A stretch of 64,000 nt of DNA from Alphaproteobacteria bacterium (GTDB taxonomy: Bacteria > Pseudomonadota > Alphaproteobacteria > Rs-D84). The number at the start of each line of letters is the position of its first letter. Positions within the stretch are counted from its first letter, which is position 1. Below are positions 5,748-59,013 of this stretch, in pieces. The DNA lies in contig WRCA01000002.1 of assembly GCA_009784275.1 (NCBI GenBank), positions 4,783 to 68,782 of the forward strand, written 5' to 3'. Under the pieces are notes generated by a model. That model had not been told where the DNA came from, made no database searches, and saw only the letters and a program-made list of their open reading frames with translations. Position numbers and translations under genes: made by a program.

Positions 5748-7212
5748 CCATTATTGTTGTCGGCCTGTTGTCCAGGGCGGCAAAGGCTTCGATATGTTTC
5801 GCCAATTGTAGCACGCGCTTGTCATCAAATCTGCGGCCTACGGTTTGCAGTCCCAATGGCAAGCCATTCTCTGCGCGTCCTGCGGGAACACTGCATGCAG
5901 GCAATCCTGCTAGATTCATTGGAACAGCAAACAAATCCAAAGCATATGATTCCAGCGGAGTTAATTTATCTGATTGGGGGAATGCCGTACCCGCCGCCGC
6001 AGGGCAGACAATAAGATCGCATTTTTCAAATGCTGCGGAAAACGCATTGTCAATCATACGGCGAATGCGCGCGGCCTGCATAAAGTATACTTCGTACGAT
6101 TCGGATGACAGCACTGCAGTGCCAATAACCATTCGGCGCTGAACTTCTTCGCCAAATCCAGCCGCGCGGGTTTTCTTGTAAGTATCAATTAGGTCTTTAC
6201 CATCTACCCGCAAACCATATCGCATCCCATCATAACGGGCGAGGTTACTGCCGGCTTCTGCCGGCGCGATAATATAATATACTGCCAAAGCATCCAGGAT
6301 ATTTGGAATTGAAATTTCAATTATTTCCGCGCCGCCGGCTTTCAAATTTTCGATATGTTTTTCTTGTGTCGATTTCATATCAGCAGATATTTCGGCATTC
6401 TCGAATTCTTTCACGATTCCGATTTTAAGCCCGGTTAATGGAAGCGGCGTCAAGGTTTCAGTCAGCGAAGATGCGATTTCATCTGCTTGCGGTGCGCTGG
6501 TAGATTCCTTTGGATCGTGGCCGGCCATTGCGCTTAACATCAGCGCGGCGTCATCCACTGTACGCCCGACCGAACTGGGGGTATCGAGGCTGCTGGCAAA
6601 TGCGATACAACCAAACCGCGAACATATTCCATAGGTAGGCTTCATACAAACCAAGCCCGTGATAGACGCTGGAAATCGGCCGGAACCGCCGGAATCCGTG
6701 CTGGTCGCGACCAAGGCAAGTCCGCCCGCGACCGAAGACATTGTGCCGCTGGAACTTCCGCCTGGGGTTAAGCGACGCTCACGCTGATAAGGACTTATCG
6801 CCGGACCAAAATAACTTGTCGCGCCCGTCTGACCCATTGCAAATTCATCCAGATTAAGCTTGCCCAATAATACGCATCCTGCATCCGCCAGTTTTTGTGA
6901 AACTGTTGATTCATATTCTGGGATAAAATTTTCCAGCATGCGTGATGCGGCCGTAGTGCGGATTCCCTTGGTCGCAAACAAGTCTTTCATCCCAATCGGA
7001 ATTCCTTCTAGCGGACGCGCAGTGCCATTCGCATATCGCCGGTCGCTTTCCGCAGCGTCCGCCAATGCGCGCTCTGGTGTTACGGTGATATAGCAATTAA
7101 GCTCCTTTCCGAATTTTTCAATTCGGTCGAGATAAGCGCGGGTCAACTCTGTCGCGGTAATTTCTTTCGCGCGGAGTTTTTGCAGTGCTTGGGTAAGGGT
7201 AAGGTCAATCAT
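5740..7212 (-). CDS. gatA: Glu-tRNA(Gln)/Asp-tRNA(Asn) amidotransferase subunit A
   Basis: Amidase-signature GGSSSGT...; N-terminus MIDLTLTQALQKLRAKEITATEL typical of GatA. The ORF-track start at 7287 is probably an upstream in-frame extension. Confidence 0.93.
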   Translation of the reverse strand: MIDLTLTQALQKLRAKEITATELTRAYLDRIEKFGKELNCYITVTPERALADAAESDRRYANGTARPLEGIPIGMKDLFATKGIRTTAASRMLENFIPEYESTVSQKLADAGCVLLGKLNLDEFAMGQTGATSYFGPAISPYQRERRLTPGGSSSGTMSSVAGGLALVATSTDSGGSGRFPASITGLVCMKPTYGICSRFGCIAFASSLDTPSSVGRTVDDAALMLSAMAGHDPKESTSAPQADEIASSLTETLTPLPLTGLKIGIVKEFENAEISADMKSTQEKHIENLKAGGAEIIEISIPNILDALAVYYIIAPAEAGSNLARYDGMRYGLRVDGKDLIDTYKKTRAAGFGEEVQRRMVIGTAVLSSESYEVYFMQAARIRRMIDNAFSAAFEKCDLIVCPAAAGTAFPQSDKLTPLESYALDLFAVPMNLAGLPACSVPAGRAENGLPLGLQTVGRRFDDKRVLQLAKHIEAFAALDNRPTTIMGE

Positions 7213-12731: not shown

Positions 12732-12759
12732 AAAAAATCCCGCGAAAGCGGGATTTTTT
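12732..12759. terminator. bidirectional intrinsic terminator AAAAAATCCCGC-GAAA-GCGGGATTTTTT
   Basis: Perfect 7-bp GC-rich stem flanked by an A-tract and a T-tract; lies between convergent genes. Confidence 0.8.
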
Positions 12760-14773
12760 ATATATCTAAATCTTTCACAAACTTTGCATGTTCGGTTATG
12801 AACTTAAATCGGAACTCTGGCTTTTTGCCCATTAATTCCGAAACCAGGGTGCGCGTTTTTTCCGCGTCTTCCGCGCCTTCCTCCGTTTTTGGCGGCAATT
12901 CCACACGTATCAAGCGGCGTGTCTTTGGATTCATTGTGGTTTCTTTCAACTGATTTGGCATCATTTCACCAAGTCCTTTGAACCGGCTGATTTCTACCTT
13001 TTTGCCTTTGAATTTCCCGGTGCGTAATGCTTCCAATTCTTCATCACTATCAACATAAATCGATTCGGTTCCTGCAGTGACTTTATATAATGGGGGGCAG
13101 GACAGGTACAGGTGTCCGTTATGAATTAGCTGTGGCATAATATTATAGAAATTCGCCATCAGCAGGGAGGCTATGTGGCTGCCATCAACGTCCGCATCGG
13201 TCATGATAATAATTTTTTCATAGCGCAATTTCGATTCGTCCCAGTCTTTCGCAGTGCCCGCGCCGATAACATCGATTAACTCGTTCATCTCTTTATTATC
13301 GGCCAATTTTTCAGACGAATTAGAAATTACATTCAAGACTTTTCCGCGAAGGGGCATAATTGCTTGGATTGCGCGATCGCGCGCTTGCTTTGCGGTGCCG
13401 CCCGCAGATTCACCTTCGACTATAAACAGTTCCGTTCCCGCAACTCCGTGCTTGCCACAATCTGCTAGTTTATGCGGCATGCGCGCGCGCTTTGTTGGCG
13501 TTTTGCGCGCGATATCTTTGACCTGTTTTGTTTTGATACGCGCCGCCGCCAGATTATTTACGAACTCCAACAACGCGGTCGCAGTTTTCGGGTCAGATGC
13601 CAAAAACATTTCCCATGGATCGGAAAGAGCTTTTTCCACATATCGCGCAACTTCGGGATTAGACAGCTTTTCTTTTGTCTGACCCAGGAACTGCGGAGTC
13701 TTATAGAATACGCTGACAATGGCGCAGGCCGAATCGAATACATCATCGGCGGTGATTAATGCAGCAGACTTGTTATTAATTTTTTCGCCGTAATTCTTCA
13801 AACCTTTTGTAATTGCGGTGCGAAAACCCGATTCGTGTGTGCCGCCGTCAATTGTCGCGATGGTGTTGCAATAACTGGCAAAGAATCCATCATCAGACGC
13901 TGCGCCATTTTCATCGGTCAAAACTGTTAATGCCCATTCTACACGTCCCGAATCGTCCGGGAATTCTACCGTTCCGCTGAAAAGCTTTGGCAGCAGGCGC
14001 GGCTTTGTCGCGGTTTTTTGTTCCAGAAAGTCTGCAACCCCGTTCGGATAATAGAAAGTTTCAGTCGCGGGCAGGTTCATGTCTTCGGTCAATAACGACG
14101 TGTCGCATTTCCATTCAATCTTTACGCCGCGTGTCAAGAAAGCCTTTGCTCGTGCCATACGATAAATCTTTACCGGCTTGAATGCGGCCGCGGCGCCGAA
14201 AATCTGATCGTCCAAGGTAAAGCGCACGGTTGTGCCATGCTCCTTGGTAGCTTCACCCTTTATTAATGGTGAAATAGTCTTCCCGCGGGAAAATTCCTGG
14301 GTCCAAAAATATCCATCGCGCGCCACACGTACAATTGTATGCGCCGCCAAGGCATTAACAACCGCGGCACCGACGCCATGCAAACCGCCCGATGTCTTAT
14401 AAACATTATTGTCGAATTTGCCGCCGGAATGCAGCATTGCGAATATGATTTCCAGCGCGGATTTGCCCGGATATTTAGGATGTTCATCAATCGGGGCACC
14501 GCGACCGTCGTCAGAAATTTCTATTGTCTTGTTATCTATTAAACTGACTGTGATTTTCTTGGCAAAGCCGGCAACGGCTTCGTCCACCGCATTATCCAGA
14601 ATTTCGGTCGGCAAGTGGTGCCAAGCCTTTTCATCTGTGCCGCCGATATACATTCCGGGGCGCAGACGTACAGGCTCCAGCCCTTCAAGGACTTGGATAT
14701 CAGACGCATTATAAGAGTTAGAGGTTTTTGGTGCCACGGCGGGCAGGGTAGCTGAAAATAAAAAAGATTTCAA
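12758..14773 (-). CDS. parE: type IIA topoisomerase ATPase subunit, topoisomerase IV subunit B-like (671 aa)
   Basis: GHKL ATPase, Toprim EGDSAGG, PLRGKVLNV, (I/L)MTDADVDGSHI; the length fits ParE rather than GyrB (about 800 aa). Confidence 0.75.
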   Translation of the reverse strand: MKSFLFSATLPAVAPKTSNSYNASDIQVLEGLEPVRLRPGMYIGGTDEKAWHHLPTEILDNAVDEAVAGFAKKITVSLIDNKTIEISDDGRGAPIDEHPKYPGKSALEIIFAMLHSGGKFDNNVYKTSGGLHGVGAAVVNALAAHTIVRVARDGYFWTQEFSRGKTISPLIKGEATKEHGTTVRFTLDDQIFGAAAAFKPVKIYRMARAKAFLTRGVKIEWKCDTSLLTEDMNLPATETFYYPNGVADFLEQKTATKPRLLPKLFSGTVEFPDDSGRVEWALTVLTDENGAASDDGFFASYCNTIATIDGGTHESGFRTAITKGLKNYGEKINNKSAALITADDVFDSACAIVSVFYKTPQFLGQTKEKLSNPEVARYVEKALSDPWEMFLASDPKTATALLEFVNNLAAARIKTKQVKDIARKTPTKRARMPHKLADCGKHGVAGTELFIVEGESAGGTAKQARDRAIQAIMPLRGKVLNVISNSSEKLADNKEMNELIDVIGAGTAKDWDESKLRYEKIIIMTDADVDGSHIASLLMANFYNIMPQLIHNGHLYLSCPPLYKVTAGTESIYVDSDEELEALRTGKFKGKKVEISRFKGLGEMMPNQLKETTMNPKTRRLIRVELPPKTEEGAEDAEKTRTLVSELMGKKPEFRFKFITEHAKFVKDLDI

Positions 14774-21596: not shown

Positions 21597-22418
21597 ATGT
21601 TCCGAAAGTTCTTAATTTTCGCGCTTTTCGCGACAGCGTGCGGTTATGTTTTTGCGTCAGAATATGCGCCAGTATGGCCCGCCCCAGGCGATGAAGCGGA
21701 TATTCAGGTCATTAATGTCCCGATGGATTTCGATCCGGCCAGTGGTGTCGGAAACGAATTTTATTCAGATGATGCGGATAATGTTCGCATAGTTTCAAAG
21801 ATTGGCGCAGACTTGGTTGTTGAAAATAATTTCAATATGGCCGGCCGCGGCGAAGGCTTTTGGTCCGGCGGCGCTGATTTGACCCAGATATACCAAGCAC
21901 CTCCCGGATTCAATATGTATGAAGGTCAGGCAGAAATGCCGTTGATGCATGCCGAAATGATGGAAGATGATGGCGGTGCGGTTTTGGCTATGTCCCGATC
22001 CGACAGGGATAGAAGAAGCGCGAGAAGTCTTGATGCCGCAGGTGTGTATGCTGGCGGCAGGGCATCATCCGGCATGTTTATAGGGTCAAGCGATTCCGGT
22101 GATGATTTTGAATTCGAAGTCGAAGATTCTGCGGACCTTGGCAAAGCCGGCGCGGCAAAAGATCAGGTGCGCAGCTGGGTTGTTGCATCAGGACAGACTT
22201 TGCGGTCAGTTCTGCAAGAATGGTGTGATAAAGAAGGCTGGGATTTGGTGTGGAATACCGCGCGCGAATATCCAATTGCCGCATCTGCTGTGTTCAAAGG
22301 ACGCTTTATGGATGTATCAAGCGCATTGGTACGCAACTTCAGCCGCGCTGATCCCATTCCGTATGCAAAGTTTTACAAAGGCAACCGCGTTCTAGTTGTA
22401 ACAACTAATGAAGAATAA
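21597..22418 (+). CDS. secreted protein with TcpQ-like C-terminal domain (putative secretin partner/pilotin)
   Basis: Signal peptide; acidic low-complexity middle; C-terminal VASGQTLRSVLQEWCDKEGWDLVWN block reminiscent of the TcpQ/BfpG family; immediately upstream of the secretin. Confidence 0.5.
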   Translation: MFRKFLIFALFATACGYVFASEYAPVWPAPGDEADIQVINVPMDFDPASGVGNEFYSDDADNVRIVSKIGADLVVENNFNMAGRGEGFWSGGADLTQIYQAPPGFNMYEGQAEMPLMHAEMMEDDGGAVLAMSRSDRDRRSARSLDAAGVYAGGRASSGMFIGSSDSGDDFEFEVEDSADLGKAGAAKDQVRSWVVASGQTLRSVLQEWCDKEGWDLVWNTAREYPIAASAVFKGRFMDVSSALVRNFSRADPIPYAKFYKGNRVLVVTTNEE

Positions 22419-22452
22419 TAAATAGCCTGTGGTCAAAAGCTGGGAGAGATAA

Positions 22453-24009
22453 ATGAAAAAATTATTAAAACCAAGTTTACTTACTTTGGGCTTTGGGCTT
22501 TTGGCAGTGAGTTTGCTTTTTGGTTGCGCGAAAAAAGAAAGCGCGCAAGTCGCGGCAACTGTGGATCAAGATTTTATAAATGCTCATGAAGCTTTCGAGT
22601 TGTCCAAAGGTCCAAAAGCGCGGGTTTCCAATGATACGATTTCCACCAGCGAAGGCGTATGGTTGGGCAACAGGTCGACCATATTAGAACATAGAAATAA
22701 TCTGCCTGCGGAATTTGAAGACGATACAGGAATTACGATCATGCTGACCGAGCCTGTATCCTTGCAAGTCTTAGCCAATAATATTTATTCCATAACCGGA
22801 ATTCCGGTGAAAATAGACAGCCAAATAAACGCGGAAAAATTAAAGAAGACCATGGGGGTCGCTTATACAGGCAGGCTGTCGGGGCTGATGACCCAGGTTG
22901 CGACTGACTTGGATTTGCTGTGGTACTATGACAAAAGCAGCATTGTGTTTTATGAAACCGAAACGAAAACATTCACGCTTTTTGCGCTGGGGACGGATGT
23001 AAGTTATCAATCCAGCGTTCGCACGGAAGATGGTAATCAAGTTTCTCTGGAATCTAACTTGCGCGAATGGGAAGAAGTTGAGCACACATTGGAATCCATC
23101 ATAGGTGGCAACGGTGATGCGAAATTTACTGTATCACGCTCTTTGGGAACAATCACGGTTACGGCGCCCCCGTCGGTTCAAGCGCGTGTGGGCGACTATA
23201 TTAACAAACAGAACAAACGCTTGTCACAATTGGTGGCCATTGATGTAAAAGTTTTACAAGTATCGATTCAAAATTCATCGGCGTTTGGGTTGAACCTGGG
23301 CGCAGCGATCAGCACGGTTTCGGGATTGAATGTTGTGGCCAGTCCGACGACCCCGGTCAGCTCTCCGGAAGTAAGCGCGTTAAGTGTTGCGGTTCTTGCA
23401 ACCAGCGGCAGCTTGTCCAATCTTGATGGCAGCCGCGCACTGATAGAAGCATTGGCAAAGCAGGGCAAGATTTCCCTTGTCACGAATGTCGGCGTAACAA
23501 CCCGCAATAATCGTATCGCACCTGTATCAAATACTCGCAGCACCGGATATATCAAACGATTCGAATCGCGTAACTTTACTACGGTTGAATCCAGTACCGT
23601 TGATCAGGCTGATTTGGAAACAGGATTCTCGATGCAGCTGCAGCCGAATATATTGGAAAATGGAAAGATTCTGTTGCTTTTCAGAATGAGCGTGCGCGAG
23701 CTGATAGCGATGGGAACAACTAGAATCGGCGAAGTGACATTGCAATTACCTGATGTGGAAGAACGCAGCTTTATGCAGGAAGTTGTTATGGAATCCGGAC
23801 AGATGCTTGTGTTGTCGGGCTTTGAAAGACAAACGAATAATGATCAACGCTATGGGCTGGGTGATCCGAACTTTATGGCGTTGTCTGGGTCACGCGAATC
23901 CAGCAGCAATCGTGATGTGCTGGTTGTGATGTTGACGCCGCAAGTGCTTGTTTCCCCGATGGATGCTGAAAGAAGTATACAGCAACACTGGGGCGCCCCG
24001 CTTAATTAG
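22453..24009 (+). CDS. lipoprotein secretin (type IVb pilus / T2SS-type outer-membrane channel)
   Basis: Lipobox LLFGCAK; C-terminal secretin domain (VAIDVKVLQVS...; VLVVMLTPQVLV). Confidence 0.8.
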   Translation: MKKLLKPSLLTLGFGLLAVSLLFGCAKKESAQVAATVDQDFINAHEAFELSKGPKARVSNDTISTSEGVWLGNRSTILEHRNNLPAEFEDDTGITIMLTEPVSLQVLANNIYSITGIPVKIDSQINAEKLKKTMGVAYTGRLSGLMTQVATDLDLLWYYDKSSIVFYETETKTFTLFALGTDVSYQSSVRTEDGNQVSLESNLREWEEVEHTLESIIGGNGDAKFTVSRSLGTITVTAPPSVQARVGDYINKQNKRLSQLVAIDVKVLQVSIQNSSAFGLNLGAAISTVSGLNVVASPTTPVSSPEVSALSVAVLATSGSLSNLDGSRALIEALAKQGKISLVTNVGVTTRNNRIAPVSNTRSTGYIKRFESRNFTTVESSTVDQADLETGFSMQLQPNILENGKILLLFRMSVRELIAMGTTRIGEVTLQLPDVEERSFMQEVVMESGQMLVLSGFERQTNNDQRYGLGDPNFMALSGSRESSSNRDVLVVMLTPQVLVSPMDAERSIQQHWGAPLN

Positions 24010-31565: not shown

Positions 31566-31937
31566 ATGAATCACGAAGATACTATTTGTAATGGTTGTTT
31601 AAATGCGAAAATACCTAGATTTGGCTGTGGCGCGAAACTTGGTTATTCATGCGGATATAATTTCAGAAACTTGTCTGAATCCAAACTGTCCTGTACTGAT
31701 AAAAAGATTTACCTCGGGACGTCGTCATATTGTAACTATGGCGGCGGGCATTTTGGCAATTTTAAAAATAATTTTCCAGAGCCTTGTGTTAATTGTCAAT
31801 CAAACCAATATTCTGCCGGCCCGGGCGAAGACCGGATTGATTATCATGACTGTGTGCATCCGGAAGTAACTTTCTTCATGATAGAAGACCTGAAGGCAGG
31901 GCGTTTGGAAATATGTCCGTTTCAGAGCGTAAAATAA
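31566..31937 (+). CDS. hypothetical Cys-rich small protein (123 aa, 14 Cys)
   Basis: ORF track. Confidence 0.45.
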   Translation: MNHEDTICNGCLNAKIPRFGCGAKLGYSCGYNFRNLSESKLSCTDKKIYLGTSSYCNYGGGHFGNFKNNFPEPCVNCQSNQYSAGPGEDRIDYHDCVHPEVTFFMIEDLKAGRLEICPFQSVK

Positions 31938-31947
31938 GGATACGAAG

Positions 31948-32319
31948 ATGAGATATAATTCGCCTGAAGAAAAAGTAACAAAGAGAATAAGAAATTGGGG
32001 CGTGGGATTATTTGCCACCGGTGTCATTGCATTTTTTGTTGCGATCGGGCTTGATATAGTCGGCCAGCAAAATGAGATGGATGCGAAACTTGCAAAATTA
32101 GAAACGGGCGTTTCTGACGGTATGTTCTTGAGGGGGGTAGAAGACTCATTTGATATCGCTTATAGAGAAGATATGAAAAAAGTAGCTAAAAATTTATCTG
32201 AAAAATCTGAAAAGCAAAGAACTGCCGCATTGTGGACTTTGTATTCAAGCCTTTTTCTGATGGGCACGGGCGGGACAGGGCTTTTTATCGCACATCAACG
32301 CAAAAAGAATGGGATGTAG
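31948..32319 (+). CDS. hypothetical membrane protein (2 TM)
   Basis: ORF track; hydrophobic helices. Confidence 0.45.
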   Translation: MRYNSPEEKVTKRIRNWGVGLFATGVIAFFVAIGLDIVGQQNEMDAKLAKLETGVSDGMFLRGVEDSFDIAYREDMKKVAKNLSEKSEKQRTAALWTLYSSLFLMGTGGTGLFIAHQRKKNGM

Positions 32320-32908: not shown

Positions 32909-32936
32909 AAAATCCCGCTTTCGCGGGATTTTTTAC
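32906..32936. terminator. bidirectional terminator AAAAAATCCCGC-TTTC-GCGGGATTTTTT
   Basis: Between convergent genes. Confidence 0.8.
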
Positions 32937-34051
32937 ATTCTTATTGGCATCAAGACATACAATGAATCCGTTTTCTTTTCCTTGGACTTCATAATAGTCG
33001 GGCTTAACGGATCTTGCATTTCGATTTGGAACTTGTCCCCTTCGACCTGGGCCGCGATATCCAGCAAGAACTTTACATTAAACGCAATCGCAAATGTTTC
33101 ATCGCCATTGTATTCAACATCTATTTCTTGTGTCGCAGCGCCGGCATCCGGGCTGGATGCGCTGATAACCAATTTGTTCATAGAAAATTCCAATACTACG
33201 GACTTTGTTCTATCCTGGCTGGCAACCGATACCAAGTCAACCGCGGATACGAACTGCTTTCTGTCCAAGATCGCGATTTTATCATTACCTTTTGGAATCA
33301 CCACGCGGTAGTTCGGATACTGCGCATCGACCAACTTGCTGGTAAGCGTTGCGCTGCCCACTGTAAAACGTGCCTTGGTATCCGACAATTCAACCGTGAC
33401 ATCATCAACTGTTGCGTCTTCCAGCAATTTCGAAAGTTCCCCGATGACGCGGCGTGGCAGAATTACAGATGGCATTTCGGCAGAACCCTCTGGCGCCGGC
33501 ATCAAGCACATAGCCATACGCTGGGAGTCTGTTGCAACCGCCGTAAGCATTTTGTTTTTGCCTTCTTCGGTTATGTGAAAATAAATTCCGCCCAAGTGAT
33601 AACGCACATCATCGGTTGGGATCGCGAATTTCGTTTGGTTAATCAGATGCGCCAGGTCGCCAGTTGTCATCTGGAACTTTGTTGTCAGATTTGCATTCGC
33701 CATCATCGGGAAGTTTTCCGCCGGCAATGTTGGCAGTCTGAACACTGCGCGTCCGCTGGACACAACCAGCTGGTCGCCCGCTTGTTTGAACTTTATTTCC
33801 GAATCTTCGGGCAGCTTGCGCGCGATATCATACAGCATCTGCACAGGTACCGTGATTTTTCCAGGCAGTGTGATATCCGCCGCGACATGTTCTATCAATT
33901 CCAGGTCGACATTGGTCGCAGACAGCACCAAATCATCTTTGACCTCTATCTTGACGTTCATCAAAATCGGCAGGGTTGCGCGCTTTTCAACAATAGACTG
34001 CATATGGCCGAGAGTCTTGATTAAAACCTGGCGAAATACTGAAAATTCCAT
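32933..34051 (-). CDS. dnaN: DNA polymerase III beta sliding clamp
   Basis: 372 aa, three-domain clamp pattern, N-terminal MEFSVFRQVLIKTL... Confidence 0.9.
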   Translation of the reverse strand: MEFSVFRQVLIKTLGHMQSIVEKRATLPILMNVKIEVKDDLVLSATNVDLELIEHVAADITLPGKITVPVQMLYDIARKLPEDSEIKFKQAGDQLVVSSGRAVFRLPTLPAENFPMMANANLTTKFQMTTGDLAHLINQTKFAIPTDDVRYHLGGIYFHITEEGKNKMLTAVATDSQRMAMCLMPAPEGSAEMPSVILPRRVIGELSKLLEDATVDDVTVELSDTKARFTVGSATLTSKLVDAQYPNYRVVIPKGNDKIAILDRKQFVSAVDLVSVASQDRTKSVVLEFSMNKLVISASSPDAGAATQEIDVEYNGDETFAIAFNVKFLLDIAAQVEGDKFQIEMQDPLSPTIMKSKEKKTDSLYVLMPIRM

Positions 34052-41044: not shown

Positions 41045-41827
41045 ATGGATTTTTTTATACATCATCTTATTAATATATTGCAAGTTGTGCTTATAGCCAT
41101 TGCGTGCTGGCTGTTTTACAAGCGTTTTATCAAGAATACAAATTCCGAAAGATTAGTGCGCGGTATTTTGGGTTTGGTTGTGCTGTGGTTGTCCAGCTGG
41201 TTATTCTTGTATCTGAAACTGGGGATATTGGGCGAGTTCACAAGACTGATCGCTATAGTTTTGTCCATAGGGACGGTTGTCGTATTTCAGCCAGAGCTCC
41301 GCAAGTTTTTCGCAATGATGGGGCATATGAGATTCCTTCGGATTTTGTTTTCCCCCAGCGCTACGTCGGATGCTGCGACCAAGGCAAAAATTCAGCATGA
41401 TTTGGATGAAATAGTAAGCTCTGTGGCATATATGTCCAAAAGACATACCGGTGCGTTGATTGTATTTCGTAACGAATTTGATGGGACAATTGAAAACCTG
41501 GGCACGAAAATAAATGCTGAAATTTCCAGCGAATTAATCTTAACGATATTCTTTGATAAAACACCACTGCATGATGGCGCGATGATTATAGGAGGAGGAC
41601 ATATCTTGTACGCGGGCGCTGTATTGCCATTAACACAGAAAAGCGATTTAAACTGGCGATATGGCACGCGCCATCGCGCCGCAATCGGAATGTCCGAGGC
41701 AAGCGATTCAGTCGTGCTGGTCGTATCGGAAGAAACAGGAACAATCTCTATCGCCGAAAATGGCAAGCTGACAAAGTATGATGATATGAAAAAACTGAAG
41801 GCAAGACTGGAAAAAGCGATTAATTAG
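41045..41827 (+). CDS. cdaA: diadenylate cyclase CdaA (c-di-AMP synthase)
   Basis: Three N-terminal TM helices, then a DAC domain with DGA (LHDGAMII) and RHRAA motifs. Confidence 0.85.
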   Translation: MDFFIHHLINILQVVLIAIACWLFYKRFIKNTNSERLVRGILGLVVLWLSSWLFLYLKLGILGEFTRLIAIVLSIGTVVVFQPELRKFFAMMGHMRFLRILFSPSATSDAATKAKIQHDLDEIVSSVAYMSKRHTGALIVFRNEFDGTIENLGTKINAEISSELILTIFFDKTPLHDGAMIIGGGHILYAGAVLPLTQKSDLNWRYGTRHRAAIGMSEASDSVVLVVSEETGTISIAENGKLTKYDDMKKLKARLEKAIN

Positions 41828-41947: not shown

Positions 41948-42400
41948 ATGTTTAGAAAATCAGTCACTATTCCCGCAGCTGCGATTAAGGTTAAAGGCAG
42001 GGATATTCCAATCGAAATGAAGAAGTGGTTTGATGTAAAATTTGCGGATCATGGGATTGCGTTAAAGAAAGTTTGTATAATGCCTATTTCTAAAGATGCC
42101 CCGCATGCAGGCGATATTGCGACAGATTTGGTATATGATAAATATGGCACGAAGTATGCTATATCACTTGGGTGGATGAAGAAAAACAGAAAGGGAAGGC
42201 CTGTTTACCCTATGAAGTATCTCAAGAATGTGCAAGATAGCCTCGTTTGGATTATTATAAATAATTTACGCAAAGAAGATGGTGAAGAAGTGGTTAATCC
42301 CCAGAAGTATTTGGATGAATTAAACTTTCTTTTCAAAATGCGCTCTTGGTTGCCAGGCGTAGTGTACCCAGTAGTAAAAGAAGCATTAAAAGTAAAATAA
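41948..42400 (+). CDS. hypothetical protein (150 aa)
   Basis: ORF track; TTGACA-16-TATTAT promoter at about 41889-41916; terminator follows. Confidence 0.45.
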   Translation: MFRKSVTIPAAAIKVKGRDIPIEMKKWFDVKFADHGIALKKVCIMPISKDAPHAGDIATDLVYDKYGTKYAISLGWMKKNRKGRPVYPMKYLKNVQDSLVWIIINNLRKEDGEEVVNPQKYLDELNFLFKMRSWLPGVVYPVVKEALKVK

Positions 42401-44982: not shown

Positions 44983-45011
44983 AAAAAATCCCGCGTGTGC
45001 GGGATTATTTT
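44983..45011. terminator. terminator AAAAAATCCCGC-GTGT-GCGGGATTATTTTT
   Basis: Downstream of the giant fibre gene. Confidence 0.7.
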
Positions 45012-48000
45012 TATCTGGTAATCAGTTCCCAGAAGAAACCCTTTGGCGCCGTCGATGGAGTATACGCGCAGTTTGCAGTACTAGGAGGAGTGGTGCCAGG
45101 AATATAACCAATTCCAAGTCCAGTTGAGGGAAGATTAGGACAATATTGTCCATAGTTCAATGAACATGATACGTTGTTTCCATCGCATGCAAAGGGAACC
45201 TTTGGTATAAGACCATTCGAACCACCATTACCTGCCGAGGTTTCAGCAGTCGCAACTGGTGGAACAAATCCAATCGCTTGCCAGTTGGTTCCATCGTAAA
45301 TAAACTCATAAACAGCAGCGTTTAATGGATTGTTTGCGCTAACTGCAGCGTCATTTACAAATATGGGTCTGGCGGTAAGATTGACGCCACTGGCGGTAAC
45401 ATTTAAGGTTGCAGCAGCAGTCGCGGTGCTATGAATCTTCGCAACCACGCGTCTGCCAGTTGCCAGAGAAGGTATGATCTTTGATGTGGCAAGAGTATAT
45501 GTTGGTGCAGTTCCAAGAGTAGTTCCGTCAAGGTAGTTGAATATTGGATCGCTTTCTGGCATCAGCTCCCAAGCGGCCCCGTTATATACGAAATTATAAG
45601 TTTGTCCTGCACGCAACAGACCCGCTGCAATCGGGGCAGACCCCATATACTGAATTGTTTTTGCACCAGTGATGTTATTTATATTAATTGTTGATCCGCC
45701 GGTATTTGTATTGATGAATGTTGCTACTAGATGGGAACCTTTGGTCAGCATATCAGCGGTGAAATTTGTGAATCCATTTGCTGTCAAAGCGTAACTGTTT
45801 GTGCCGGATGCTGTTCCAGTAAATACGTTATCAGCAGTACCAATTATTTTGGCATTCCAATTAGTTCCATCATATGTAAATGAATATGTCGTACCTGCTA
45901 TCAATAAATTTGTAGTGCTTATAGCTGCCCCATTTTGAAATACCGGTCTGGGGGTTTGTCCACCTACGGATAAAGTTGTAGCGGCAGAAGAATTAGCATG
46001 CAGGGTAGCGAATACAACGGCACCCGATACCTGATCATTTGCGGTGAAGGCCGGGGCAAGAAAACTGGGAGAGCCGGTCGCAATAGTAAGCGCAGTGGCT
46101 GATCCGCCAGTTAATATTCCATTGAATGCCCTGGTAAGATCAGGCTTGTTAAGCAAATCATTATAACTTCCCGTCTTTGAAACTTGATGAAGTGTAATAT
46201 TACCACTCATCAATTCACCAGCACTGGGGGTTTGAGTACCTGTTGCATTAGTAATCAAAGTACCTGCTGGACCAATTGCACCTTGGTTTCCCTGGTTACC
46301 TTGCTGGCCGTTTGTACCAGCTGCGCCCTGATTGCCTTGCTGACCGTTCGTACCAGCTGTACCTTGATTACCTTGTTGACCATTAGTTCCAGCAGTACCT
46401 TGATTCCCTTGATTACCCTGGTTTCCTTGTTGTCCATTCGTACCGGCCGTACCCTGATTACCTTGATGGCCTTGATTACCTTGTTGTCCATTGGTTCCGG
46501 CAGTGCCCTGATTTCCTTGGTGACCCTGGAAGCCCTGGTTACCTTGATTCCCTTGTTGACCGTTGGTTCCGGCAGTACCTTGATTTCCCTGCTGTCCATT
46601 CGTGCCAGCTGTTCCCTGATTACCCTGGTGCCCTTGATTTCCCTGCTGTCCATTCGTGCCAGCTGTTCCTTGATTCCCTTGATGGCCCTGGAAGCCTTGA
46701 TTTCCCTGGTTACCCTGTTGACCATTCGTACCGGCCGTACCCTGATTACCTTGCTGTCCATTCGTACCGGCTGTGCCCTGATTTCCTTGATTGCCTTGGT
46801 TCCCCTGTTGTCCATTAGTTCCAGCAGTACCTTGATTCCCTTGATTCCCCTGGTTTCCTTGTTGTCCATTCGTACCGGCCGTACCCTGATTACCTTGATG
46901 TCCTTGATTACCTTGATGTCCTTGATTACCTTGTTGTCCATTGGTTCCTGCAGTCCCCTGATTCCCCTGTTGACCGTTTGTGCCGGCTGTACCTTGATTA
47001 CCTTGACTTCCTTGGTTGCCTTGCTGTCCATTAGTACCTGCGGTACCCTGATTTCCTTGGTGTCCCTGGAAACCCTGGTTGCCCTGATTCCCTTGCTGAC
47101 CGTTGGTTCCTGCTGTTCCTTGATTGCCTTGATGTCCTTGGAATCCCTGGTTGCCCTGATTACCCTGTTGGCCGTTGGTTCCTGCTGTTCCTTGATTCCC
47201 TTGATGGCCCTGGAAACCTTGGTTACCCTGTTGTCCATTAGTACCGGCTATACCTTGGTTCCCTTGCTGGCCGTTAGTACCGGCTGCACCTTGGTCTCCT
47301 TGGTTGCCTTGCGGACCATAAGAACCGTTGCCGTAAATTGTGACTGTGCCATCAGAAGCAGATGTGACAGTTACTGCCCCTGTACCTTTAATTTGGTTAG
47401 CAGATGTTACATTTCCACTTTCCACATGATTTAAATATGGATCGGTTGTAGCCCTGTTTACCAGAGCATTTGGGCCGGTAGTGGTATCAGTAAAAACAGA
47501 TATAGAACCATTTACAAGTTCTACATTCCCAGGTGTCCATAAGGTTATGCCAGGTTGATCGGCAATGAATCTGTATACTCGCCCATCTGTATAACGTACC
47601 AAGTCTCCAATAAAATAGTCTGATGTTATACTGAAAGCAGGAACATTTGTAGTGTCAAGTTTTTTCGCATGCCAACGTTTTGTTGTGGCGTCATATGTAA
47701 ACGAATATTTAGAGCCTGGGACTAATGGATTTGATGGGCTAACAGTTGATCCATTTTGGAATATGTTATATGAGTCGGTGTTATTGACATTCAACATGAG
47801 ACCTGACCAGAGACTTCCAGGAGGCATTGCGTGCAATGTAGCAAATACGACGGTTCCGTGCACAAGGTCATCTGCGGTAAAAGTCGGGTAAGTTATTAAG
47901 CTGTAGGACGGCAGAGTTCCGCTTGTTTTGTCCCCATTGAATGCCCTTGGCGCTGGGGGGCCGATGACAAGCGAGACATGTGCCATATCCCAAGCGCCGG

Positions 48001-48286
48001 CCGGATGCGCAGTAGTAAACCTATATACGCTTCCATTATAGACAACATGATCGCCAACAGCATATGCTGTGCCGGTAGAGAAATTAGGAACCCCAGTAAT
48101 TTTTTGACCTGACCCATCTGTCGCATATATTGCAATATTACCAACATTTGCTTGAGAGGTTCCAGATACGCTTGTTTTTCTCTCCACATAATTCATAGAT
48201 GTAATAATGTCAGTACCCGCCGAAAGTGCCGGCGTCGAAAACAACGCAATAATCAGCGCCGATATGCTGACTTTAGAGGCTTTCAT
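45011..48286 (-). CDS. giant secreted collagen-like / phage-tail-fibre-like protein (1091 aa)
   Basis: Signal peptide; about 117 Gly-X-Y triplets (GTAGTNGQQGNQG...); SYNDLLNKPDL tail-fibre motif; four copies of a roughly 70-aa domain ending Y(S/N/E)F(T/V/I)Y(D/N)G(T/A)(N/A)W; Cys-rich C-terminal tail. Confidence 0.8.
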   Translation of the reverse strand: MKASKVSISALIIALFSTPALSAGTDIITSMNYVERKTSVSGTSQANVGNIAIYATDGSGQKITGVPNFSTGTAYAVGDHVVYNGSVYRFTTAHPAGAWDMAHVSLVIGPPAPRAFNGDKTSGTLPSYSLITYPTFTADDLVHGTVVFATLHAMPPGSLWSGLMLNVNNTDSYNIFQNGSTVSPSNPLVPGSKYSFTYDATTKRWHAKKLDTTNVPAFSITSDYFIGDLVRYTDGRVYRFIADQPGITLWTPGNVELVNGSISVFTDTTTGPNALVNRATTDPYLNHVESGNVTSANQIKGTGAVTVTSASDGTVTIYGNGSYGPQGNQGDQGAAGTNGQQGNQGIAGTNGQQGNQGFQGHQGNQGTAGTNGQQGNQGNQGFQGHQGNQGTAGTNGQQGNQGNQGFQGHQGNQGTAGTNGQQGNQGSQGNQGTAGTNGQQGNQGTAGTNGQQGNQGHQGNQGHQGNQGTAGTNGQQGNQGNQGNQGTAGTNGQQGNQGNQGNQGTAGTNGQQGNQGTAGTNGQQGNQGNQGFQGHQGNQGTAGTNGQQGNQGHQGNQGTAGTNGQQGNQGTAGTNGQQGNQGNQGFQGHQGNQGTAGTNGQQGNQGHQGNQGTAGTNGQQGNQGNQGNQGTAGTNGQQGNQGTAGTNGQQGNQGAAGTNGQQGNQGNQGAIGPAGTLITNATGTQTPSAGELMSGNITLHQVSKTGSYNDLLNKPDLTRAFNGILTGGSATALTIATGSPSFLAPAFTANDQVSGAVVFATLHANSSAATTLSVGGQTPRPVFQNGAAISTTNLLIAGTTYSFTYDGTNWNAKIIGTADNVFTGTASGTNSYALTANGFTNFTADMLTKGSHLVATFINTNTGGSTININNITGAKTIQYMGSAPIAAGLLRAGQTYNFVYNGAAWELMPESDPIFNYLDGTTLGTAPTYTLATSKIIPSLATGRRVVAKIHSTATAAATLNVTASGVNLTARPIFVNDAAVSANNPLNAAVYEFIYDGTNWQAIGFVPPVATAETSAGNGGSNGLIPKVPFACDGNNVSCSLNYGQYCPNLPSTGLGIGYIPGTTPPSTANCAYTPSTAPKGFFWELITR
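46259..47314. repeat. near-perfect tandem DNA repeats (units of about 45-63 nt) encoding the Gly-X-Y collagen-like region
   Basis: Repeated units such as ggttaccttgattcccttgatggccctggaagccttgatttccctg are visible by eye; they generate long spurious antisense ORFs. Confidence 0.8.
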
Positions 48287-48436
48287 AGAGATTTTCTTTC
48301 CTACTTTTATTCCTATTTCCCGATTCTATCACAAATCTTCGAATCGTGTCTAGTGCAAAAAGAAGTCAAGCAGCAAAAACATGTATTTTTTAGGTGGGTG
48401 GACGTCCTTGCCAGTAACAGGTATGGGCACAAAAAA

Positions 48437-48468
48437 TAAATCCCGCATTTGCGGGATTTATTTTTTTT
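48437..48468. terminator. bidirectional terminator AAATCCCGC-ATTT-GCGGGATTTATTTTTTTT
   Basis: Between the promoter region of the giant gene and the 3' end of the RHH gene. Confidence 0.7.
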
Positions 48469-48886: not shown

Positions 48887-49621
48887 ATGTACTTTTTCCC
48901 AAAACGACATGCAAGGGCAGTTTTTCATGGTGAGCTGATCATGCCGTTTGGTCATATGACTCATGAACAATTAGTGGTATGTGTGGAAGAAGAACTGGCC
49001 GGAGAAGATCCTAATTACCAATTTGGGGATCTTTTTGAAGAAGCTTATGCCATTCAAGTTCTGCATGTTTTCAAGTATATTATTATGATTTCATTTGATA
49101 TTGCCGAAGACTATGAAATTTCCCTGAATAACTGGACGACAATAGCCGCTGAATTTTTGTGCGCGAAATATCTTGATTCCCTGGGGGGATATATGTTCCA
49201 GCGAACTTTTTCCGATGCTTTCAAGCTCGCGCTGGATAACTGGGAACGCATGTTGGAAGAATCCGAAGATTATGAAGAATTTGAATCTGATAAAATCCAA
49301 ATGGTTTCGCTAAAATCGGGAACTCGTAAACAATACAAAACATTAAATTGCAAAGATTGTCAGGTATTTGGGGCATGTAATCGCAAAAAGCCCAAGGATT
49401 GTGACTTTATCAATGCGGTTGAGAATAAGATCGGCGCTAAAAATATGATCAAGGCGCCGGAAGTCATCAATCGCCAAGATAATAAATTTTTAAAGAAAGA
49501 AGTAAATGTTTCGATGAACCCAAATGCGCTTAACAATGAAATGTTAAGAAAAGAGCTGGAAGGGGTTTGGAATTATTTTTATGCAAATAAAGTAGCAAGT
49601 AATAATCAGAATAAAAAATAG
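48887..49621 (+). CDS. hypothetical protein (244 aa, acidic)
   Basis: ORF track. Confidence 0.4.
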   Translation: MYFFPKRHARAVFHGELIMPFGHMTHEQLVVCVEEELAGEDPNYQFGDLFEEAYAIQVLHVFKYIIMISFDIAEDYEISLNNWTTIAAEFLCAKYLDSLGGYMFQRTFSDAFKLALDNWERMLEESEDYEEFESDKIQMVSLKSGTRKQYKTLNCKDCQVFGACNRKKPKDCDFINAVENKIGAKNMIKAPEVINRQDNKFLKKEVNVSMNPNALNNEMLRKELEGVWNYFYANKVASNNQNKK

Positions 49622-57607: not shown

Positions 57608-58009
57608 ATGAAATTTATAGAAACCATAAAAGACTACTTTTCCGCAAGGACCGCTTATCAGATCGCTTTGGGCAAGTTGGTAATTGCTGGTTATGAAATA
57701 AGAGGGTATCAGGACGTTTCCGAAGAAGAATTCAGAAGCTATAAGTCCAGAAAACAAAAACGAGATCATTGCATACATGTCGTTAATTATATAGAGGATA
57801 AGGATGATGGGGAATATAGGTGGTTTGAATCTCACGAATTGTTTTGCTACTGTGAAAATTTTGAGGGCAAGAAATTGTGTAAAGATAAAGAGTGCCCAGG
57901 CCATAAAAACTATCGTAGACACCACAGATGTTACAACAATTATATCAAGGCCGAGAAACACATGAAAGAATGCTGGAAGGCTATATTTACCAGAAATCCG
58001 AAAAAGTAA
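57608..58009 (+). CDS. hypothetical Cys-rich protein, paralog B (ends [12 protein letters not shown])
   Basis: ORF track; AGAGGG RBS. Confidence 0.5.
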   Translation: MKFIETIKDYFSARTAYQIALGKLVIAGYEIRGYQDVSEEEFRSYKSRKQKRDHCIHVVNYIEDKDDGEYRWFESHELFCYCENFEGKKLCKDKECPGHKNYRRHHRCYNNYIKAEKHMKECWKAIFTRNPKK

Positions 58010-58011
58010 GA

Positions 58012-59013
58012 ATGTCGCATCAATTTTTCTTTTCACCGCATATTATTGGAAGCTTGCCTGTGCCAGCGACTGGCTTTGATGTGGTGCAAGATATTGCAGA
58101 ACCACGCTTGCGCTTGTATATAACTTCGCGCGGGATTAAGACTTTTTTTACACGCAAGCGGGTTCGCGGGCGCGACGTTCGTATAATTATCGGCCGCTTT
58201 CCTGATGTTTCCGTAGAAGATGCCCGTAATGCGGTTTCGGAAAAGATCGCGGAATCCGCCGCACCGGTTAAAGTTCGCCGCAATCGTATCGTTTTCGACA
58301 GATTATTTGCCATTTATCTTTCCCGCAAAGTCAACAGGACCGAAGAAAGCCTGATGAAACTGAAACGCACCGCATCGCGTCATTGGGCATCCTTGATGCA
58401 GCGAGAAGTTGCAGATATCACTTCGGATGATCTGGCAGCGATACATGAAAAGATTTCCGAAACTGCTGGCATTGCGACCGCAAACCGCATGCTGGAAATT
58501 TTAAAGAGCATGTTCAAGTTTGCAATAGAGCAGGGACATATAACCAAAAATCCTGCTGCCGATCTGGAGAAATTTACCGAAAATCGCCGTCATCGTGATT
58601 TAACCAATGAAGAGTTTTCGCGTCTTATGAACGCCATCAAGAAAGAAAAGAATTATACTCTACGCTCGGCTTTCCTGATGCTGGTATTTGGGTTTGCCCC
58701 AAAGTCTGCTATTTTTGCCATGCGCTGGCGAGATTTTGATTTTAACAGTGATACCTGGCTGGATCGTCCCCTGTCCGACCCGGCGGTTGTATTATTGCGG
58801 AATGTTCCTCAATCTGGAACTTGGGTGTTCCCCAGTCGCGGACGGCACCTGACTGATCCGCGCAAGGCTTGGGCGGGTCTGGTGCGCAAGGCTGGCTTAT
58901 TGGATGTTCAAATGAACGATATTTACAAGCATTTATCCCGAAATCTTGCTTGGTCCGCCGATCGGGAGCAATTAAGGGCGAATATGAACGAGGTAATTGA
59001 CCATTTGTTATAA
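58012..59013 (+). pseudogene. tyrosine recombinase/integrase remnant (N-terminal SAM-like plus partial catalytic domain, truncated before the Tyr nucleophile)
   Basis: Integrase-like blocks (LTNEEFSRL, WRDFDF, VFPS, HxxR) present; Box I Arg replaced (GFAPK); the ORF ends about 20 aa before the expected catalytic Tyr. Confidence 0.5.

Follow-up and report, generated by a model that had tools for sequence, protein, structure and literature searches.

The MAT fibres of Bdellovibrio bacteriovorus lie on the cell surface and bind glycans; they have a conserved, beta-rich N-terminal domain of ~130 aa, shafts of beta-prism or beta-helix type and variable C-terminal tips, often with an S74 chaperone-protease (PMC10769870). 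EPclA and EPclB, side-tail proteins of E. coli O157:H7 prophages, carry a Gly-X-Y stalk, phage tail-fibre domains and a C-terminal trimerisation region, and for EPclA, experiments demonstrated a trimer with a collagen triple helix (PMC3368898). For the trimeric tail fibre gp47 of Pseudomonas phage Pa193, residues 1-340 have been described as three "beads on a string" (PMC11456595). Among secreted or surface proteins, Scl1/Scl2 (Streptococcus), Lcl (Legionella) and BclA (Bacillus) combine a long Gly-X-Y stalk with a non-collagen trimerising domain. Lcl comes from a Gram-negative bacterium and carries a Sec leader, and the foldon of T4 fibritin is a C-terminal beta-hairpin trimerisation unit. 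Here, we analysed a gene for a collagen-containing fibre protein of 1091 aa in a 64-kb stretch of DNA (64,000 nt, hereafter the window) of an alphaproteobacterium (assembly GCA_009784275.1, contig WRCA01000002.1).

The interpretation that we favour, with a probability of about 0.62, is that this gene encodes a Sec-exported homotrimeric fibre that is displayed on the surface or released, acts as an adhesin and belongs to a family built of phage-fibre modules. It builds on the observed gene structure, module homology, non-prophage context, presence/absence polymorphism and link between leader and tail. On our best reading of the sequences, the family is small, restricted to a lineage of uncultured alphaproteobacteria, fast-recombining and apparently undescribed. 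Its members appear to be united by a shared leader, N-terminal head and C-terminal Cys/WELITR element, with shafts that seem to have been shuffled from phage tail-fibre modules.

Comparison with described fibre systems

MAT fibres are, by analogy, probably the best functional counterpart of the window fibre. Both families comprise chromosomal, multi-gene, signal-peptide-bearing, phage-tail-fibre-like fibres with mosaic domains, the trimeric state of the window protein being predicted. They differ in that the window head measures ~45 aa, the shaft consists of beads and collagen, and the C-terminus is conserved rather than variable. Unlike many MATs, the fibre gave no Pfam match to Peptidase_S74, and the solved MAT fragments and tips had no sequence match to the window protein. 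Whereas the MAT host is Bdellovibrio, the window host is not known as a predator.

The bead domain is common to the window protein, gp47 (PDB 9b45) and other phage tail-fibre and minor-tail proteins. In contrast to the sampled phage proteins and viral contigs, in which neither was seen, the window protein carries a signal peptide and a conserved C-terminal Cys element. It has no recognisable baseplate-attachment N-terminus. Phage fibres sit in a phage structural module, whereas the window gene does not; it thus has the shaft domains of a virion fibre together with an export signal, outside any phage or prophage gene module. The EPcl proteins share with it the Gly-X-Y stalk, the phage tail-fibre domains and a C-terminal, here putative, trimerisation region. 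However, they are prophage-encoded and cytoplasmic, whereas the window protein is encoded by a chromosomal, non-prophage gene and predicted to be exported. EPcl collagen has 48% Pro in X and is charge-rich, in contrast to 1.7% Pro and 0.4% charged residues in the window stalk of 119 triplets, and the domains flanking the collagen differ between the two.

The architecture of Scl1/Scl2, Lcl and BclA corresponds to that proposed here, but NCBIfam scores were below cut-off and driven by Gly-X-Y (SclB, 200 versus 325 bits; Lcl, NF046116, 164 versus 500; SclA, 159 versus 400; the Scl1/Scl2 LPXTG adhesin models being NF038329/NF038330), and the Lcl match was confined to the Gly-X-Y region. The Pfam scan, hydrophobicity and sequence revealed no LPXTG motif, C-terminal hydrophobic segment, Lcl C-terminal domain or BclA C1q-like domain in the fibre, nor was the trimeric autotransporter anchor PF03895 (YadA) matched. 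Judged by these profiles, the window protein is not an Scl, Lcl or BclA family member. A previous interpretation made from the letters of the window alone (hereafter the sequence-only reading) had likened it both to prophage collagen-like tail fibres and to BclA and Lcl. The former likeness holds, whereas the latter extends to Gly-X-Y only, with scores below the NCBIfam cut-offs and no family anchor or C-terminal domain. The T4 foldon is similar by analogy, having a short C-terminal beta-hairpin such as is predicted at the fibre end. The window tail has no sequence match and no detectable structural match to the foldon and adds a putative disulfide loop and a variable insert.

Module architecture of the fibre protein

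The features of the locus are listed in Table 1. The intact open reading frame (ORF) and the architecture given by the sequence-only reading (leader, Gly-X-Y, four domain copies, SYNDLLNKP, Cys tail and FWELITR) were confirmed by ORF, Pfam, BLASTP and hidden Markov model (HMM) analyses; the CBM5/12 module and its degenerate copy had gone unnoticed. A second assembly in ENA contains identical DNA over 20.7 kb including the fibre gene, likewise called as a 1091-aa gene; the two assemblies probably derive from the same reads. The exact sequence of the fibre protein was absent from the protein collection searched, in which its neighbours were present.

Table 1. Features of the fibre gene, its product and reference genes; positions refer to the window.
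Feature	Position	Strand	Evidence
Fibre gene	45011..48286	minus	ORF list: 1091 aa + stop codon, ATG start
Sec-type signal peptide, aa 1-23, MKASKVSISALIIALFSTPALSA cleaved before GTD	48218..48286	minus	n/h/c regions, hydrophobicity
Conserved N-terminal head, aa 24-65 (..YVERKTSVS..VGNIAIYATDGSGQKITG)	48092..48217	minus	55-59% identity to L016 and L027 counterparts
CBM5/12-type module, aa 66-104	47975..48091	minus	Pfam PF02839, E 2.7e-8
Bead copy 1, aa 113-212	47651..47950	minus	BLASTP and HMM
Second, degenerate CBM5/12-like motif, aa 219-257 (SDYFIGDLVRYTDGRVYRF..W)	47516..47632	minus	Resemblance to aa 66-104
Linker module, aa 258-320 (..YLNHVESGNV..GTGAVTVTSASDGTVTI)	47327..47515	minus	56% identity over 34 aa to P0079 aa 424-457
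Collagen-like stalk, aa 321-677, 119 Gly-X-Y triplets	46256..47326	minus	Translation, Pfam
Module ..GNITLHQVSKTGSYNDLLNKPDL, aa 678-718	46133..46255	minus	80% identical to P0006
Bead copy 2, aa 719-815	45842..46132	minus	BLASTP and HMM
Bead copy 3, aa 816-909	45560..45841	minus	BLASTP and HMM; weak phrog_4900 tail-protein match
Bead copy 4, aa 910-1007	45266..45559	minus	BLASTP and HMM
Conserved C-terminal Cys element, aa 1008-1091 (SAGNGGSNGLIPKVPFAC-x6-C-SLNYG ... FFWELITR)	45014..45265	minus	Alignments
Promoter-like site TAGACA-18 nt-TAGAAT, TG extended -10	48323..48352	minus	Consensus scan; written TAGACA-18-TGATAGAAT, read 48352..48323
Shine-Dalgarno-like AGGAAAG, 9 nt ahead of ATG	48296..48302	minus	Read from sequence
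Bidirectional terminator hairpin AATCCCGC(N4)GCGGGATT, directly past fibre stop codon	44987..45006	both	Hairpin scan
Terminator hairpin between RHH gene and fibre promoter	48431..48466		17-nt arms, 100% complementary
dnaA	28366..29688	plus	
dnaN	32933..34051	minus	
gyrB	12758..14773	minus	

The repeated unit is a bead domain with the consensus YGTCSTAAxTAAKTV..F.L.TGA.V.VKF...NTA..PTLNVN.TGAK.I.Y.G......AG....F.YDGTNW. Pairwise BLASTP aligned copies 1 and 2 at 43% identity (E 6e-23), copies 2 and 4 at E 4e-16, 2 and 3 at E 7e-11, and 3 and 4 at E 4e-8, with copies 1 and 4 within E 4e-16 to 4e-8; an HMM recovered all four (E 1e-19 to 1e-24). Neither Pfam nor NCBIfam holds a model of the domain. 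A profile of 38 bead copies matched one solved structure, residues 247-333 of gp47 (PDB 9b45, E 3.3e-11), a stretch that corresponds to bead III; this structure, fitted by cryo-EM in 2024, is the only solved example of the domain. For copy 2, AlphaFold with the 38-copy alignment gave a confident model (pLDDT 90.5). Foldseek found 40 bead matches at E <= 1e-3 among predicted viral structures, including phage collagen-repeat proteins, hyaluronidase tail fibres, Pseudomonas and Xanthomonas phage tail fibres and mycobacteriophage minor tail proteins. When 1.84 billion representative proteins were searched exhaustively with the profile, 46,397 passed E <= 1e-3 and 19,625 of them E <= 1e-10, single proteins having as many as 18 bead copies, and the best matches sampled fit the tail-fibre PHROGs 4900, 11303, 1833 and 20242. 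Because of the gp47 match, the Foldseek matches, the 46,397 proteins and these PHROGs, we regard the bead domain, on sequence profiles and structural models, as a very common phage tail-fibre shaft module that is unnamed in domain databases.

The sequence-only reading had counted four copies of a novel domain of ~70 aa. The count stands; the unit is ~83-95 aa long, with the motif in its C-terminal 70 aa, and the novelty did not survive the Foldseek and profile comparisons with phage tail fibres, although no Pfam or NCBIfam model exists. A common phage-fibre domain that lacks a Pfam model is therefore easily mistaken for a novel one when only the sequence is read.

When the C-terminal 416 aa were used as a query, only distant relatives were found, mostly phage-tail-fibre-like proteins with one to four tandem bead copies, some of which also hold Phage_fiber_2 or Mtd_N domains; neither this query nor the collagen block obtained a tblastn match in 50,697 phage genomes, although for the collagen block the low-complexity filter probably suppressed matches. 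Beads 3-4 share ~50% identity with the final beads of P0079 (E 3e-41), a member of the same family. Between collagen and bead 2 lies GNITLHQVSKTGSYNDLLNKP, which has 80% identity to part of P0006 and is also found in P0002, P0017, P0018 and P0024, which are phage-fibre-like proteins; the SYNDLLNKPDL motif occupies aa 706-716. Tail-fibre PHROG E-values obtained with the full protein (1e-64 and similar) mainly reflect Gly-X-Y, and scanning the segments apart left only copy 3 with phrog_4900 (E 0.0017).

The collagen-like stalk runs through all 119 triplets with zero interruptions (Pfam Collagen PF01391, E 6.5e-57) and, if triple-helical, would be ~102 nm long at 0.286 nm per residue. X positions hold 34% Asn, 30% Thr and 16% Gln, and Y positions 65% Gln; Gln in Y is common in bacterial collagens. 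In the DNA, repeats have periods of 36/54/108/162 with 63-85% matching, so that assembly of the repeat is plausible. The collagen segment is absent from every relative examined, and is best read as a spacer, a shaft variant specific to the strain. Phage-like proteins that join collagen with beads do exist, for example P0139 (27 triplets) and matches in BFVD. Two further ORFs inside the collagen repeat, at 46184..47434 (plus, 416 aa) and 46255..47238 (minus, 327 aa), are alternative-frame or opposite-strand artefacts and not genes.

Leader, head and C-terminal element

In the leader, a basic n-region is combined with a hydrophobic core (12-aa Kyte-Doolittle maximum 2.44) and the cleavage motif LSA; a lipobox Cys is lacking. 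Equivalent leaders are present in L016, L027, P0079, P0064 and P0014, that of P0014 becoming apparent when an upstream TTG, which follows an AGGAGG, is taken as the start. Including the window protein, each of the six full-length proteins with the tail has a Sec-type leader. Among the best 149 bead-domain representatives, the tail occurs in 2, both with a leader-like N-terminus, compared with 1 leader-like N-terminus among the 147 others. A short head common to the family (..YVE/D..K...V/IA.V...DG.G..I) follows the leader, and a related motif is also found in P0079 and P0064. The PF02839 match of the CBM5/12 module covers aa 69-100 (34.1 bits versus a gathering threshold of 26.2); weak PDB sequence matches link the module to the CBM of chitin oligosaccharide deacetylases and chitinase A1. 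The linker module is shared with L027. A word-indexed search with the N-terminal 323 aa gave a single weak match, P0195.

At the opposite end, Cys residues stand at 1034, 1041, 1049 and 1073 (four in the last 58 residues), and the protein closes with FFWELITR. Tails of the family follow the pattern SAGxGGxxGxIP[KR][IV]P[FY]AC-x6-9-C-x-L-x-YG, a variable loop, [FY][FY]WE[LIKV][IV]xR and the stop codon, and their Cys count is always even (2 or 4). In the AlphaFold model of the tail, VSCSLNYG pairs with GFFWELIT as a beta-hairpin (pLDDT 70-78) and the variable loop is disordered. A pattern and tblastn scan of 2.9 million viral contigs detected no tail relatives. The element likewise had no match in Pfam, in PDB sequences (phmmer) or, as a bead and tail model, in Foldseek against the PDB, and a word-indexed search with the tail alignment returned no match. 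A metagenome scan with an alignment of three tail sequences recovered L027 and the P0079 contig. Two candidates were rejected: phmmer matches of the C-terminal region to PDB kinesins are due to chance, and a tail match in L004, a Duganella metagenome-assembled genome (MAG), is spurious, as there is no ORF there.

Genomic context and presence/absence among relatives

The window also holds suf genes, gatCAB, TolB, FtsEX, RbfA and LepA besides dnaA, dnaN and gyrB, and therefore represents core chromosome near the replication origin. The fibre gene is flanked by AsmA, CdaA, PlsC and TolB on one side and DUF218, FtsX, FtsE, RbfA and LepA on the other, a block that is syntenic in relatives. As the sequence-only reading had it, the gene is chromosomal with its own promoter and terminators: a promoter-like site and hairpins on both sides were found within housekeeping flanks. 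Its SNase and RHH neighbours were supported as well, the former by Pfam (E 3e-4) and a PHROG endonuclease (E 1e-12), the latter as CopG_antitoxin (E 1e-9).

To find related loci, we probed with the tail and anchored the comparison on the neighbouring RHH protein. L009-L014 show the order LepA-RbfA-FtsE-FtsX-DUF218-RHH-SNase-TolB-PlsC-CdaA-AsmA without a fibre gene, their RHH and SNase genes being 58 bp apart with one terminator between them. L016, L017 and L003 carry a fibre gene (723 or 954 aa) at exactly the RHH-SNase site, that of L003 broken by an N-run. In L027, a 748-aa fibre is encoded upstream of SNase, with its first 212 aa 59% identical to the window protein (E 8e-68). The RHH-SNase site of L005 is empty, yet P0079, a member of 2175 aa, lies just past TolB (L005 9192..>14234). 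This relative MAG (GCA_009783145.1) has at least two family members in housekeeping contexts: P0079, and P0064 (1026 aa; L029 8001..11081), which adjoins mutL on another contig. P0014, a more distant member, lies among rpsD, ffh and ftsJ in a Rickettsiales MAG. The same L005 locus also encodes a separate YadA_anchor trimeric autotransporter (L005 1567..3570) near RHH-SNase-TolB. The contig CAYJAG010000001.1 (L003/L015), labelled "uncultured Muribaculaceae bacterium", is gene-for-gene syntenic with the window and was probably mis-binned or mislabelled; the L016 contig of the same lineage, to which it is nearly identical, encodes neighbouring proteins with 61-91% identity to those of the window.

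A promoter stretch, (T)AGACACGATTCG-N9-10-TGATA(G/A)AAT, is kept upstream of the window, L016/L003 and L027 fibre genes. Between -35 and -10, three lineages with strongly diverged coding sequences share GACACGATTCG (window 48323..48352; L016 ~6480-6530; L027 ~30-65), which may be a candidate regulator-binding site. Hairpins equivalent to that past the window stop codon also lie 3' of the orthologues in L016 and L027. Since the promoter motif is conserved and each gene has its own terminator, what is gained or lost is a cassette of promoter, gene and terminator that is complete in itself. Identity between the window and L016 is 61-91% for neighbouring proteins, compared with 25% for the fibre (38% over aligned columns), which also has another module order; by this comparison, the fibre gene is diverging fast. 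GC content at third codon positions (GC3) is 0.34 in the non-collagen parts of the fibre gene versus 0.44-0.48 in neighbouring genes, consistent with a foreign, phage-like ancestry.

A location in a prophage is excluded by the housekeeping flanks and by synteny with fibre-less relatives. An intact prophage tail module, the alternative that the sequence-only reading had named, was not found; the flanks are housekeeping genes, which also occur in relatives without the fibre gene. The 64-kb window contains no phage structural gene, tRNA gene or Rfam family, and no att-like or mobile-element-type direct repeats flank the fibre gene. An integrase-like gene at 57928..59013 (plus; Arm-DNA-bind_3, Phage_int_M) lies 10 kb off, near LepA and an acyl-carrier-protein gene, and marks no prophage, as it is syntenic in every relative with or without the fibre gene.

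Two other ORFs, at 48887..49621 (plus, 244 aa) and 41948..42400 (plus, 150 aa), had no match in Pfam, PHROGs or PADLOC and are each the sole member of their 90% cluster; relatives lack both at the syntenic loci, which marks them, like the fibre gene, as insertions specific to the strain. The CdaA-type diadenylate cyclase gene (PF02457 DAC; NCBI name CdaA) at 41045..41827 (plus) has a counterpart at the same position in every related genome examined, although cyclases that make c-di-AMP are uncommon among Alphaproteobacteria. At 31566..32319 (plus), between a CxxCxxCC-domain gene and dnaN, two tandem 123-aa ORFs are followed by ORFs of 95 and 94 aa, all without a Pfam match, which may form a small paralogous gene array. 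Adjacent TcpQ-like (PF10671) and secretin (PF00263) genes at 21597..24009 (plus; secretin 22453..24009), ~21 kb from the fibre gene, are candidates for a conduit through the outer membrane that could serve a pilus or the secretion of folded proteins.

Proposed fibre and alternative explanations

A secreted trimeric fibre, already suggested by the sequence-only reading, is plausible given the leader, the bead homology and the Gly-X-Y repeat, the trimer being a prediction. We infer trimer formation, folding order, disulfides, surface location, adhesin function and ligand as follows. The protein would be exported by Sec and its 23-aa leader removed; the features and conservation of the leader are observed, and cleavage is predicted from them. 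Three chains would associate, as suggested by the trimeric bead of Pa193 and by the need of Gly-X-Y for a triple helix. Chain register would be set at the C-terminus, by the hairpin together with the three beads next to it; a Cys1034-Cys1041 disulfide formed in the periplasm would probably lock the hairpin. From there, the collagen would close into a triple-helical spacer of ~100 nm, by analogy with C-terminally nucleated phage fibres and the foldon. With a stalk of ~102 nm and four beads of ~5 nm each, the fibre would total ~130 nm, far longer than the width of the periplasm, and would therefore have to end outside the cell. There, it would be displayed or released and act as an adhesin. The N-terminal head, the CBM5/12 module, bead 1 and the second CBM-like motif form a plausible ligand-binding or anchoring end, with the CBM5/12 module near the N-terminus as a candidate sugar-binding site of chitin type.

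Several points weigh against this interpretation. The 238 X and Y positions of the stalk hold just 2 Pro and 1 charged residue, whereas viral and bacterial collagens average 22-48% Pro in X and 10-38% Lys/Arg in Y (PMC3368898, Table 4); with a composition so far from these averages, a stable triple helix is not assured. The exact number of collagen repeats may be wrong, given that the sequence comes from a short-read metagenome assembly. Sugar binding is uncertain because the second CBM5/12-like motif has no Pfam match of its own and because CBM5/12-like hairpins are also present in phage-like proteins such as P0195. The tail model is of moderate confidence and derives from a shallow alignment. 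In addition, Pfam and hydrophobicity analyses recognised no outer-membrane anchor or dedicated secretion signal, i.e. no YadA anchor, LPXTG or C-terminal transmembrane helix.

The presence of a leader together with no recognisable anchor would also suit a protein that is exported but released, either as a scaffold of extracellular matrix or biofilm or as a soluble lectin-like cross-linker of particles such as chitinous material. Both ends are conserved and might be two binding ends, a CBM5/12 module is present, and the neighbouring gene encodes a secreted SNase-type nuclease, an enzyme type often linked to extracellular-DNA matrices. However, the SNase gene is kept in relatives without the fibre, so that co-occurrence does not couple the two functionally. 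None of our observations separates a released from a surface-anchored version, and we consider the released one unlikely, though worth keeping in view. The gene might instead encode a true virion-type fibre, serving a gene transfer agent (GTA), tailocin or prophage as tail fibre or head spike, with the structural cluster elsewhere in the genome. RcGTA fibre genes are unlinked, the host here is an alphaproteobacterium, every recognisable module is of phage tail-fibre type, and the low GC3 suggests foreign origin. Such particles assemble in the cytoplasm, from which the conserved cleavable-type leader would remove the protein, and the window lacks any phage structural gene. The paired tail Cys, the negative scan of viral contigs for the C-terminal element, the scattered housekeeping contexts of at least two paralogues (GCA_009783145.1) and the synteny of the only integrase-like gene in all relatives, fibre or none, make a virion fibre improbable.

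An assembly artefact, in which a phage collagen gene was mis-joined into an unrelated fibre gene or the repeat was collapsed or expanded, would fit the short-read data, the contigs of relatives that often break inside the fibre gene (L018-L021), the N-run in L003 and the lack of collagen at the fibre position in any relative. Nevertheless, the reading frame is uninterrupted over 3.3 kb, modules of the family flank the collagen on both sides, the 63-85% identity of the repeat units leaves them assemblable, and proteins combining phage collagen and beads are known (P0139; BFVD matches). Identical DNA in two assemblies also speaks against it, with the qualification that both probably come from the same reads; we judge such an artefact very improbable. 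Finally, with its phage-type modules, its hypervariability and its presence/absence polymorphism, the gene resembles loci on which phages exert selection, as might be expected of a surface fibre that mimics phage receptor-binding proteins and blocks receptors or competes with phages. The fibre protein had no match to PADLOC defence models and no defence genes adjoin it; to our knowledge, no decoy fibre of this kind has a precedent, and we give this explanation hardly any weight. The Sec-exported homotrimeric adhesin fibre is the interpretation that we retain.

Implications

More tentatively, and with considerable doubt, the window family may represent an undescribed class of cell-surface organelle in gut-associated alphaproteobacteria; the related MAGs may come from termite guts. 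In such a class, domesticated phage tail fibres would have acquired a Sec leader and a new C-terminal disulfide-hairpin element for trimerisation or anchoring (..C-x6-C-x-L-x-YG...[FY][FY]WE[LV]I-x-R), cassettes would be shuffled at fixed chromosomal sites, and a collagen of ~100 nm with essentially neither Pro nor charged residues would be stabilised by Asn/Gln hydrogen-bond ladders outside the known stability rules.

More than 46,000 representative proteins carry a phage-fibre domain without a Pfam model. If the proposal is correct, an uncultured alphaproteobacterium would provide the second independent case, after the Bdellovibrio MAT fibres, of bacteria exporting phage receptor-binding hardware as surface fibres. 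The Asn/Gln-rich stalk, nearly free of Pro and charge, would be of interest to collagen biophysics and recombinant collagen design, and the locus, with one site empty in some relatives and occupied by fibres of 723-1091 aa in others, would be a natural experiment in module shuffling.

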